Of a stretch of 32,000 nt of DNA, positions 16,226 to 18,045 are shown one piece after another. The notes under the pieces are model-generated. The model had not been told where the DNA came from. It was given only the letters and a program-made list of their open reading frames with translations, and searched no databases. Within the stretch, counting starts at the first letter, position 1. The number at the start of each line of letters is the position of its first letter. Position numbers and translations under genes: made by a program. Origin of the DNA: Bryobacteraceae bacterium (GTDB lineage Bacteria > Acidobacteriota > Terriglobia > Bryobacterales > Bryobacteraceae); assembly GCA_050008465.1 (NCBI GenBank), contig JBEKMO010000037.1, forward strand, positions 5,988 through 37,987, in the 5' to 3' direction.

Positions 16226-16504
16226 TCATCCGCAATTGCACGCGTCCGCGCATCCCGCGTTCTTAGCGCGCATCGCGCTGATGATCGCCGCCGCGCAGCC
16301 TACGCCGGAAGAGACCTGTACGGCGCCTAAGGGACAGTTCATCCGGCAGGCCCCGCACTCCATGCAGTTCCCGCGGTGCGCGATGAGCGCCTTCCGGCTG
16401 ACAATCGAGAAGACAGCATGAGGGCAGACCTCCTCGCACCGGCCACAGCCGTTGCAGAACGCTGGATCGACGACCAGTGAATGACCGTTCAAGATGTATT
16501 GCAT
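16226..16504 (-). CDS. hgcB: HgcB, mercury-methylation 2x[4Fe-4S] ferredoxin
   Basis: 92-aa ORF. Two CX2CX2CX3CP motifs (CNGCGRCEEVCP and CMECGACRMNCP). A conserved mid-tail Cys (GVGCAAAI) and a Cys-rich C-terminus (GCADACNCG). Strong AGGAGGAG Shine-Dalgarno in the 16-nt gap after hgcA. Confidence 0.9.
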   Translation of the reverse strand: MQYILNGHSLVVDPAFCNGCGRCEEVCPHAVFSIVSRKALIAHRGNCMECGACRMNCPLGAVQVSSGVGCAAAIISAMRAKNAGCADACNCG

Positions 16505-16520
16505 GTGCTCCTCCTGCCGC

Positions 16521-17543
16521 CTAAACGAAAGCCGCTGCCACGCGCAGGATCGCTCCCACGCCGGCCGCGACCAGGATCGGCGCTAACGCCCGCCGGACTT
16601 CGAGTCGGGCCCCCGCGTTGGTGGTGAACGTCGTAGCCCCCGTGAAGTTCAGAGCCATATAGGACGTGATCGCCGTGATGAGAAGCGCCGCGCCGGCCGC
16701 TTCGACAGTCCCCGTGGGCAACCACAGCGCCGAGGCCGCGGCCCACAGCGCCCCCGCAACCGCGCCCTTGACCGAAAATGCCCGGGACGGAAGCCAGGGA
16801 AGCAGCAACGGAACCAGGACGCCTCCCGTCAGAATGGCTCCGAGGAAGCGCACGATATCGGCGGCCAGGTGCGGGGTCAGTTCCCGATGGCGGACCAGGT
16901 CGAGCACGACCAGGGCCGCCAGGATGCCCAGCGCCGGCTTCCAGGCGCCGACGAGTTCCATGGGAGCGACAATCAGCCGCTCCTTCCAGCCGAAGCTCAC
17001 CAGACGCATGGCCGGTGTGGCGCGCATGCCGGCGGCGAGGTACGCGGGGATATCGCGGGCCCGAACGGGGCCGTAGCTGACCGAAAAGGCCGTCGCGCGC
17101 TTCACCTCGTGCGCGGCCACTCCCACCGCTCCAAGCTGCGGGAGGACGAGACGGCGGTGCTCCACCATCCGGGCCAGGCCCGTGGCCTCGATGCGGCGGA
17201 CAAGCTCCTCGGTGCCAAACGTCCCCTTCCCGGCGGCGCACCAGACGTTCACACCGTTCGTGTCCAGAACCAGGAGCCACACGTTCAGGCCAACCAGCCA
17301 GCGGCGTACCGCGTCGACCGTCAGCTTGTAGTTGGCCGTCACCAGGACCGGGGATTTCGAATCCGGCTGCCCGATCCGGTACAATCCCGGAGCGATCCGA
17401 TAACTCATCCGGCCGATCCCCCAGCGCACGCGCCATCCACCGAGCACGTCCCGCCAGGTGAGCTTGGTGTTGAGCGTCGCCGGCGTCGCCGGCTGCACCT
17501 GGGTCACCGCGCCACACCCGCATCCGCAGCCACTCTTGCTCAT
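16521..17543 (-). CDS. hgcA: HgcA, mercury-methylation corrinoid protein (N-terminal corrinoid-binding domain + C-terminal membrane domain)
   Basis: 340-aa ORF. The diagnostic cap-helix motif NVWCAAGK (codons at 17226..17249) was verified by hand translation. Flanking sequence fits HgcA: PVLVTANYKLTVDAVRRWL...LLVLDTNGVNVWCAAGKGTFGTEELVRRI. The C-terminal half has about 5 hydrophobic helices. AAGGAGG Shine-Dalgarno inside the marR 3' end. Confidence 0.93.
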   Translation of the reverse strand: MSKSGCGCGCGAVTQVQPATPATLNTKLTWRDVLGGWRVRWGIGRMSYRIAPGLYRIGQPDSKSPVLVTANYKLTVDAVRRWLVGLNVWLLVLDTNGVNVWCAAGKGTFGTEELVRRIEATGLARMVEHRRLVLPQLGAVGVAAHEVKRATAFSVSYGPVRARDIPAYLAAGMRATPAMRLVSFGWKERLIVAPMELVGAWKPALGILAALVVLDLVRHRELTPHLAADIVRFLGAILTGGVLVPLLLPWLPSRAFSVKGAVAGALWAAASALWLPTGTVEAAGAALLITAITSYMALNFTGATTFTTNAGARLEVRRALAPILVAAGVGAILRVAAAFV

Positions 17544-17544
17544 T

Positions 17545-18045
17545 TCAAGCCTCCTTTGCCGGCCGGCAACAAAGCCCCTGGCCCTGCTGGCCCGCGCGAA
17601 GGCGGCGCATGCTGTCGGCCAGCAGCCGCACCGCTCGTACGACCCGCCGCTGGTCCGTCGCGCTCATCTCCCCGAGCAGCGCCGCGTAGTGGCGGTTGCA
17701 CATCTCATTGATCGTCGCGATCCGATCGCGTCCGGCGGGCGTAAGGGTCAGACGCACTGACCGCCGGTCGGCCGCGTCCACGGCCCGCTCCACCAGCCCG
17801 GCCTTCACCATCCCCTCGACGGTGCGGCTGAGCGTGCTGGTGTCGAGGTCCAGGGCGGCGGCGAGGCTGGTGAGCGAGAGCTCTGAGGACGACAGCTCGA
17901 GGAGCGCGTGGCACTGGGCCAGGGTGACGCCGCAGCAGGTGGTCTCTCCCTCGAGCTGCCGCACGACTTCCCGCTCCAGGACGCGGAGGTCCCGCCGGAA
18001 GTCCTCGACGGAGGCCTCTTTCGGATGCCCGGATCTTGTTTGCAT
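17545..18045 (-). CDS. MarR-type winged-helix regulator with two vicinal cysteine pairs; first gene of the hgcAB operon
   Basis: 166-aa ORF. MarR core: VTLAQCHALLELSSSELSLTSLAAALDLDTSTLSRTVEGMVKAGLVERAVDAADRRSVRLTLTPAGR. Cys37-Cys38 and Cys45 lie just before the HTH, and Cys159-Cys160 near the C-terminus. The stop (17545-17547) is 1 nt from the hgcA ATG. Confidence 0.88.
   Translation of the reverse strand: MQTRSGHPKEASVEDFRRDLRVLEREVVRQLEGETTCCGVTLAQCHALLELSSSELSLTSLAAALDLDTSTLSRTVEGMVKAGLVERAVDAADRRSVRLTLTPAGRDRIATINEMCNRHYAALLGEMSATDQRRVVRAVRLLADSMRRLRAGQQGQGLCCRPAKEA

Follow-up and report, generated by a model that had tools for sequence, protein, structure and literature searches.

Methylmercury (MeHg) in peat and forest soil is usually credited to sulfate- and iron-reducing microbes, methanogens and fermenters, and Acidobacteriota are among the most abundant bacteria of soil and peat. 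The locus described here lies in a stretch of 32,000 nucleotides (nt) from a Bryobacteraceae bacterium (GenBank assembly GCA_050008465.1, contig JBEKMO010000037.1, positions 5,988 to 37,987 of the forward strand), referred to as the window, and comprises a MarR-family regulator gene followed by hgcA and hgcB.

Among the described systems, HgcAB of strain ND132 was characterized by mutagenesis, in which Cys73 of HgcB and at least one of its C-terminal cysteines were found to matter (PMC7305189). The ND132 regulator ArsR2 belongs to the ArsR/SmtB family, and among the Desulfovibrio and Pseudodesulfovibrio reference genomes searched its homologs were present only in hgc+ Desulfovibrionaceae (10.1101/2022.10.17.512643). 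MarR-family genes upstream of hgcA were noted in Dethiobacter alkaliphilus and Geobacter daltonii (PMC10349881), and a conserved putative regulator upstream of hgcAB was described in 112 genomes, Acidobacteria included (McDaniel et al. 2020, PMC7438021). hgcA+ Acidobacteria were also reported in 2020, one hgcAB region being highly similar to the hgcAB regions in metagenome-assembled genomes (MAGs) of three other phyla, with a regulator of the same kind ahead of it (PMC7438021), and later surveys and a consensus-protocol paper list Acidobacteria or Acidobacteriota as hgcA carriers. Acidobacterial hgcAB and the upstream regulator were already published in 2020, NCBI equivalog models already name close relatives of the present protein HgcA, and the current understanding is unchanged by the present locus.

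Layout of the regulator-hgcA-hgcB cassette

The locus is likely a mercury-methylation operon of three genes that regulates itself and belongs to a Bryobacterales-like acidobacterium. An earlier note on this DNA, made from the letters alone, had named the three genes marR-type regulator, hgcA and hgcB, and this identification was supported by the open reading frames (ORFs), the HgcA family score, the structure match, the tree and the selection analysis described below. The reading of the locus as an intact regulator-hgcA-hgcB cassette for methylmercury formation, in a Bryobacterales-like acidobacterium of soil or peat, is supported by the sequence evidence.

All three genes are encoded on the minus strand, with the regulator gene at 17545-18045 (166 amino acids, aa), hgcA at 16521-17543 (340 aa) and hgcB at 16226-16504 (92 aa). 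The regulator TGA (17547-17545) and the hgcA ATG (17543-17541) are 1 nt apart, and this spacing indicates that translation of hgcA would be coupled to that of the regulator. A Shine-Dalgarno sequence for hgcA, AAGGAGG (17550-17556, minus strand), lies inside the 3' end of the regulator gene. hgcB is located directly 3' of hgcA on the same strand, an arrangement present in 82 of 85 loci, and the 16-nt spacer between them contains the Shine-Dalgarno sequence AGGAGGAG (16508-16515, minus strand). Both junctions were read from the sequence and agreed with the earlier note, while its statement that all three genes have strong ribosome-binding signals or tight coupling held for hgcA and hgcB and failed for the regulator gene, which has no Shine-Dalgarno sequence. 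We infer that the regulator is co-transcribed with hgcAB.

HgcA and HgcB

HgcA scored 416.2 bits against NCBIfam NF040863 (cutoff 275, E 8.5e-125), with residues 24-339 aligned to model positions 4-324 of 325. The cap-helix motif N-V-W-C-A-A-G-K, which had been placed at 17226-17249 (minus strand), proved exact by direct translation (HgcA residues 99-106) and was invariant across 29 aligned relatives. By analogy, Cys102 in this motif is predicted to be the Co-thiolate ligand and the counterpart of Cys93 in ND132 HgcA. Hydropathy of the C-terminal half gave four strongly hydrophobic segments and one weaker segment, and an AlphaFold2 model built on 29 relatives (predicted local distance difference test, pLDDT, 75.9; predicted template modelling score, pTM, 0.64) gave a corrinoid-binding domain of the beta/alpha type and, after it, five long helices (185-218, 223-249, 255-273, 278-303 and 308-338), in agreement with the about five hydrophobic helices proposed earlier. 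The C-terminal region is predicted from this model to be a five-helix transmembrane (TM) domain, a part that ND132 HgcA cannot do without. The top Foldseek match was 9a0b_A, the deposited computational model of ND132 HgcAB (E 1.6e-19, 44% identity, 319 columns), followed by chains belonging to corrinoid iron-sulfur protein (CFeSP; 2h9a, 2ycl and 4djd, probability 1.0), which matched the corrinoid domain only.

That the 340-aa protein is not HgcA but a relative that does not methylate, such as the large subunit of the Wood-Ljungdahl CFeSP or a paralog of the fused HgcAB-like kind, is scarcely credible. Such an identity would accord with the Pfam result, in which the generic corrinoid domain CdhD (PF03599, 53.6 bits, cutoff 24.8) was the only domain found, but it was rejected on the model scores, the absence of the cap-helix Cys in CFeSP, the TM domain and the tree distance. 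Against the 416 bits for HgcA, the fused HgcAB_like model gave 211.3 bits (cutoff 285) and the CdhE/AcsC model (acetyl-CoA decarbonylase/synthase gamma, CFeSP) gave 72.7 bits (cutoff 306). No HgcA chain was matched in the PDB sequence search, which returned only CFeSP large subunits (about 1e-10) over residues 48-168; these carry SVLTAWAAGKF, without Cys, where HgcA has NVWCAAGKGTF, and they have no five-helix TM domain. In addition, hgcB is a separate gene here. When corrinoid domains were compared in a neighbour-joining tree with the CFeSP segment as root, the protein was placed within a nine-member Bryobacterales-like clade, the sister group of which was formed by spirochaete HgcAs, and its distance to CFeSP was 0.72 vs at most 0.42 among HgcAs. 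The paralog question raised in the earlier note was answered, as far as sequence tools reach, in favour of HgcA, with the protein inside the HgcA clade of this distance tree and the fused HgcAB-like and CFeSP models failing.

HgcB was examined by direct translation, and the architecture described for it earlier was confirmed, with two [4Fe-4S] motifs of the form CX2CX2CX3CP (C17/20/23/27-P28 and C47/50/53/57-P58), a mid-tail Cys70 in GVGCA and a Cys-rich end, GCADACNCG (16226-16252; C85, C89 and C91, pattern C-x3-C-x-C-G). GVGC is kept in nearly all of 78 HgcBs examined, and both Cys features of ND132 HgcB that are supported by mutagenesis have counterparts in the window HgcB.

Cysteines at two other positions were recorded separately. 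The N-terminus of the window HgcA reads MSKSGCGCGCG (residues 1-11, 17511-17543), and the CGCG motif is kept at this end throughout the Bryobacterales-like clade. Cys-rich N-termini (CCC, CxC and the like) are found in about half of the HgcAs, from many phyla, in 80 species-representative hgcAB loci (the best 80 of 599 stretches from a genome-collection scan), and the idea that CGCG is a novelty of the clade was rejected on this ground; the Cys-rich N-terminus could be a metal-handling tail that mirrors the Cys tail of HgcB. In another locus (L038, a Defluviitaleaceae MAG, 5008-5307), the HgcB frame contains an in-frame TGA at the conserved GVG-C-A Cys, equivalent to Cys73 of ND132, making this position a candidate selenocysteine, which is consistent with an earlier suggestion that some HgcA/HgcB homologs are selenoproteins (PMC11588087).

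Regulator, promoter and candidate operator

The regulator exceeded the Pfam cutoffs for MarR_2 (46.8 bits, cutoff 27) and MarR (37.2 bits, cutoff 24.6), matched 38 solved MarR-family chains at E <=1e-3 (best 1.2e-9), and its named database relatives were all labelled MarR. No NCBIfam equivalog was reached, the best score being 37.7 bits vs a cutoff of 125. An ArsR2 identity was rejected: the HTH_5/ArsR (PF01022) score of 18.6 was under the cutoff of 22, and the Cys layout differs from the published description of ArsR2. The NCBIfam HTH_metalloreg score, also 18.6, was under the cutoff of 55.

The cysteines of the regulator are C37, C38, C45, C116, C159 and C160. The cluster C37/C38/C45, contained in ETTCCGVTLAQCH, precedes the winged helix-turn-helix (wHTH), and C159-C160 forms a C-terminal pair. 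In the family, the motif E-T-x-C-C-G-[VI]-T-L-A-Q-C-H is found just before the wHTH, a C-terminal CC is usual, and CCG[VIL]..QCH is retained in 108 of 120 database homologs. Thiol-based sensors of the MarR family include OhrR and Escherichia coli MarR with its Cu-oxidised Cys80, and Cys-rich metalloregulators are also known from the ArsR/SmtB family. In about 29 of the 80 species-representative loci, hgcA has a homolog of the regulator as its direct upstream neighbour on the same strand, and the phyla and lineages with this arrangement were Spirochaetota, Bacillota, deltaproteobacterial lineages, Aminicenantes, Terriglobia and candidate phyla. From its position and its multi-phylum distribution, we infer that this protein probably corresponds to the conserved putative regulator of McDaniel et al.

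A sigma-70-type promoter was found on the minus strand at 18055-18084 (-35 TTGACA at 18084-18079, an 18-nt spacer and -10 TACAAT at 18060-18055). It matches 11 of 12 consensus positions, and the promoter scan gave 2 sites vs 0.3 expected in shuffles. Because the -10 ends 9 nt ahead of the regulator ATG, the regulator mRNA is probably leaderless or near-leaderless. The palindrome ACAAT-N-ATTGT (18049-18059) overlaps the -10 and the expected transcription start. In an alignment of 8 loci with HgcAs 70-100% identical, the -35 TTG and the -10 ACAA were invariant, and the palindrome was present as ACAAT-N(1-2)-ATTGT at the same position, abutting the start codon, in all 8; an upstream TTGT/ACAAT half-site lies between the -35 and the -10. 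These AT-rich palindromes were found by eye and by alignment, and the repeat finder run on 17990-18140 gave only an irrelevant GC palindrome. It is plausible that the palindrome is a MarR-type operator that would occlude the -10 and the start site.

Taken further, and only tentatively, the Cys-rich MarR-type protein may represent a family of thiol-based ligand sensors separate from ND132 ArsR2, and the most widespread dedicated regulator of hgcAB, with members at about a third of the loci (Acidobacteriota, Spirochaetota, Bacillota, Desulfobacterota-like lineages, Aminicenantes and others), autoregulating a leaderless operon through ACAAT-N-ATTGT. If this were true, the ligand of the regulator (Hg(II), As(III), a halomethane-derived electrophile, S-adenosylhomocysteine (SAH) or an oxidant) would reveal the signal that hgcAB evolved to answer and thereby its native function. 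The signal sensed by this regulator is the question that the window sharpens, and it concerns the least-explored part of the system.

Selection, gene order and possible transfer

The ratios of nonsynonymous to synonymous substitution (dN/dS), calculated pairwise against relatives at three divergence levels, were 0.21-0.34 for the regulator gene, 0.19-0.22 for hgcA and 0.10-0.32 for hgcB, indicating purifying selection on all three genes of the cassette. The order regulator-hgcA-hgcB was kept in every close relative examined, while the flanking genes differed (L086-L092). Cassette-level horizontal transfer is suggested, since the trio is the sole conserved unit, a transposase adjoins it in L090, and the sister clade of spirochaete HgcAs carries the same regulator family. 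The transposase is an IS200-like Y1 enzyme encoded directly upstream of the cassette (L090, 2799-3377).

The gene upstream of the regulator (about 18091-18725, minus strand) encodes an extracytoplasmic function (ECF) sigma factor and is a pseudogene in the window lineage. Within the conserved WLYRIA segment, the codon at 18483-18485 has become a nonsense codon (TAC to TAG), and two extra base pairs near 18379-18380 shift the frame before region 4. The split is not a sequencing error, because it is the same in independent assemblies. The ECF sigma gene is intact in L086 (199 aa) and L088 (191 aa), where the protein has a Cys-rich C-terminal extension (…YGCAVS.DHQGTPVCQ.KCGSC), and linkage of sigma gene, regulator and hgcAB is common to the closest relatives only. 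In other related loci, an ORF of 72-73 aa with no Pfam match was found just upstream of the regulator (L091, 3229-3447; L092, 3702-3923; L093, 701-922); it is absent from the window, where the sigma pseudogene occupies that position.

Host, assembly and neighbourhood

The earlier assignment of the DNA to a Solibacter/Bryobacter-like acidobacterium was upheld by three markers, all above their cutoffs: ADOP (819 bits, cutoff 622), padR_acidobact (143, cutoff 102) and Soli_cterm on the neighbouring 893-aa protein (158, cutoff 29). The neighbourhood of glycoside hydrolase (GH) and sugar transporter genes noted earlier was also recovered, and includes GH2, GH3, GH130, two major facilitator superfamily (MFS) sugar transporters, a ROK kinase, a carboxylesterase and Tad/vWA pilus genes. 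Neither mer nor ars genes were found among the neighbours of the cassette.

The closest named sequences among 7,993 homologs of HgcA (E <=1e-10) were 'HgcA [Bryobacterales bacterium]' and '[Bryobacteraceae bacterium]', at 70-71% identity. Among the matches listed, the best species-representative genome was a Bryobacteraceae MAG with 70% HgcA identity, and the others were at or below 55%; the best 80 of the 599 stretches included one Bryobacteraceae representative. The JGI annotation of the window HgcA is 'hypothetical protein'.

An assembly chimera that joined hgcAB to acidobacterial genes would be a highly improbable explanation. It could draw on the GC fraction, which is slightly higher in the cassette (0.66-0.72) than in the flanks (0.62-0.68), and on nothing else; the same values gave no clear signal of a compositional island. 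The exact HgcA sequence, with the same genes in the same order on both sides, is present in five assemblies, one from JGI and four from ENA, for which different assemblers were used, and the linkage is not regarded as chimeric because it was recovered in at least five independent assemblies. In relatives, the same cassette is carried on contigs of 0.7 Mb and 5.56 Mb (L092), and the closest named HgcAs, from Bryobacterales and Bryobacteraceae MAGs, also speak against a chimera.

Other features of the window include a DUF433/DUF5615 pair, resembling a type II toxin-antitoxin system, at about 11151-11773 on the plus strand between the GH2 gene and a 256-aa HhH-GPD-like gene, for which the evidence was precomputed Pfam annotation on identical contigs only. 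A 109-aa hydrophobic ORF with no family match (15826-16155, plus strand) falls within the 422 nt that separate hgcB from the gene of the 893-aa Soli_cterm protein; it is called as a gene in three identical contigs and may be spurious in sequence of 65% GC.

Proposed mechanism and its alternatives

In the proposed mechanism, transcription would start at the sigma-70-type promoter a few nt before the regulator ATG and give a leaderless mRNA, from which hgcA would be translated by coupling to the regulator and hgcB, 16 nt further on, from its own Shine-Dalgarno sequence. HgcA, from its sequence and model, is a corrinoid protein anchored in the membrane, with a cobalamin-binding domain of Rossmann-like fold, the cap-helix Cys102 and five predicted TM helices, and HgcB a ferredoxin with two [4Fe-4S] clusters, Cys70 and a flexible C-terminal Cys tail. 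By analogy with ND132 (PMC11588087, PMC7305189), the cobalamin would be reduced to Co(I) by HgcB, methylation by S-adenosylmethionine (SAM) would form Cys-thiolate-ligated CH3-Co(III), and the methyl group would be passed to Hg(II) presented by the cysteines of HgcB, giving CH3Hg+. The MarR-type dimer is expected to bind ACAAT-N-ATTGT over the -10 and the start and to repress its own operon, and would be released once a thiophilic ligand or an oxidant binds to, or reacts with, the CC-x6-C cluster and the C-terminal CC.

Several observations weigh against this reading of the locus. The window HgcB scored 94.3 bits against NCBIfam NF040864, 4.7 under the cutoff of 99 (next-best family, 49); a model score under the cutoff had been named in the earlier note as a possible refutation, and HgcA (416 vs 275) is clear of it while HgcB falls just short. 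HgcB also has C-x3-C-x-C in place of the terminal vicinal CC pair of ND132 HgcB. The cap-helix region of HgcA is of low confidence in the AlphaFold2 model, which is free of cofactor. The scan found no terminator 3' of hgcB, and the genes of the window give no evidence on the cobalamin supply or the anaerobic physiology of the host. The -10 hexamer itself makes up one half of the palindrome, and ACAATNATTGT had one exact match in the window, which is not significant, as 19 of 100 shuffles gave at least one; the operator claim draws on conservation across loci only, because this single match is not significant. No paper with experiments in which any Acidobacteriota methylated Hg was found in the literature searched, which was incomplete and makes this weak evidence, and the earlier remark that acidobacterial hgcAB has no biochemical confirmation is in keeping with this. 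In permafrost metatranscriptomes, acidobacterial rpoB transcripts were present and hgcA transcripts were absent (PMC7438021).

The HgcB score can be set against those of its relatives. The NF040864 alignment covers model positions 2-83 of 93 and misses the tail, and HgcBs from ten other loci scored 98.7-134 bits, with the Bryobacteraceae locus L006 at 99.6, L013 at 98.7 and the others at 106-134. A short tail ending in C-x-C-G is present in 8 of 8 clade relatives (L006, L086-L092), while most HgcBs have ...CxC...CC. We read the score below the cutoff as the mark of a short, divergent tail typical of the clade and not as evidence against HgcB, because the scores of the relatives lie at 98.7-99.6 and none of the defining residues is missing. 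HgcB scores of this clade sit around the NCBIfam cutoff (94-100 bits), and automated annotation may miss such HgcBs.

The missing permafrost transcripts also bear on the idea that the cassette is intact and effectively silent, that is, horizontally acquired and self-repressed, with no MeHg formed in situ, which is improbable. The varying flanks among relatives, the IS200-like Y1 transposase adjoining the cassette in L090 and the decay of the adjacent ECF sigma gene to a pseudogene would fit such a history. However, dN/dS of 0.10-0.34 over the three genes at several divergence levels argues against dispensability, and the promoter and ribosome-binding signals are conserved. The absence of hgcA transcripts is itself weak evidence, because confirmed methylators themselves contain very little HgcAB, about 0.0004% of total protein (PMC11588087).

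A true hgcAB whose native job lies elsewhere, with HgcAB acting as a corrinoid/Fe-S enzyme in, for example, reductive halomethane dehalogenation or another methyl transfer involving C1 compounds or metalloids, is a possible though rather unlikely explanation; MeHg would then be a side product and the regulator would sense the native substrate or a stress instead of Hg. A 2026 preprint reported that heterologous HgcAB performs CCl4 dechlorination as well as Hg methylation, and that the dehalogenation of halomethanes by model methylators is metabolic (10.64898/2026.04.26.720869), but it is not peer-reviewed and covers proteobacterial enzymes only. The hgcAB regulator of ND132 answers arsenic and SAH, not Hg (10.1101/2022.10.17.512643). 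The purifying selection on the cassette in organisms whose environments are not known to be rich in Hg, and neighbours devoid of mer and ars genes, would also suit another native function, yet no gene of the window, such as a dehalogenase accessory gene, indicates a specific alternative substrate. This explanation is moreover compatible with a mercury-methylation operon, as the enzyme would still methylate Hg.

Should acidobacterial hgcAB be active, polysaccharide degraders, as a large guild that has been overlooked, could add to MeHg formation. The window provides an example that is clean, complete and constrained by selection, that includes both flanks, and in which the promoter is well defined and a candidate operator is visible. 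Material for synthesis and heterologous testing is available because the cassette is also present in several assemblies and on the 5.56-Mb contig (L092).

Comparison with known systems

The Acidobacteria MAGs of McDaniel et al. 2020 (PMC7438021) belong to the same phylum and have the same regulator-hgcA-hgcB architecture. Unlike these surveyed MAGs, the window lineage (the window and L086, at least 88% identity) was named in no paper found.

In comparison with ND132 (Pseudodesulfovibrio mercurii, Desulfovibrio desulfuricans), the locus has the same hgcA-hgcB order, and HgcA has the same corrinoid domain, NVWCAAGK Cys and five-helix TM domain, while the CGCGCG stretch with which the window HgcA opens is unlike ND132 HgcA. 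The two HgcBs share two CX2CX2CX3CP motifs and a Cys about 12 residues past the second motif (C73 in ND132), whereas the ND132 tail is longer and ends in the vicinal pair C94/C95 and the window tail is short, with C-x3-C-x-C-G. ND132 is a sulfate reducer with a studied system, and the window HgcAB is known from sequence alone in an aerobe-affiliated, polysaccharide-degrading lineage.

The regulators also differ, ArsR2 of ND132 being a PF01022 protein with C47/C49/C86/C88 and the window regulator a MarR-type protein with CC-x6-C and a C-terminal CC. With the thiol-based MarR and ArsR sensors the window regulator shares the winged-helix dimeric repressor fold, and its gene comes first in a presumably repressed operon with a palindrome over the promoter. 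Its conserved cysteines near the dimer interface and before the wHTH are a further likeness to these sensors, drawn from general knowledge as a lead, whereas the Cys pattern ETxCCG[VI]TLAQCH with a C-terminal CC is, as far as found, unlike that of any characterised MarR or ArsR protein.

The CFeSP large subunit AcsC/CfsA (PDB 2H9A, 2YCL and 4DJD) has a homologous Rossmann-like cobalamin domain and cap helix (E about 1e-10, HgcA residues 48-168). In contrast to HgcA, it carries Thr/Leu in place of the cap-helix Cys and no TM domain, contains a [4Fe-4S] domain at the N-terminus as well as a TIM-barrel region, and works with a small-subunit partner instead of a ferredoxin.

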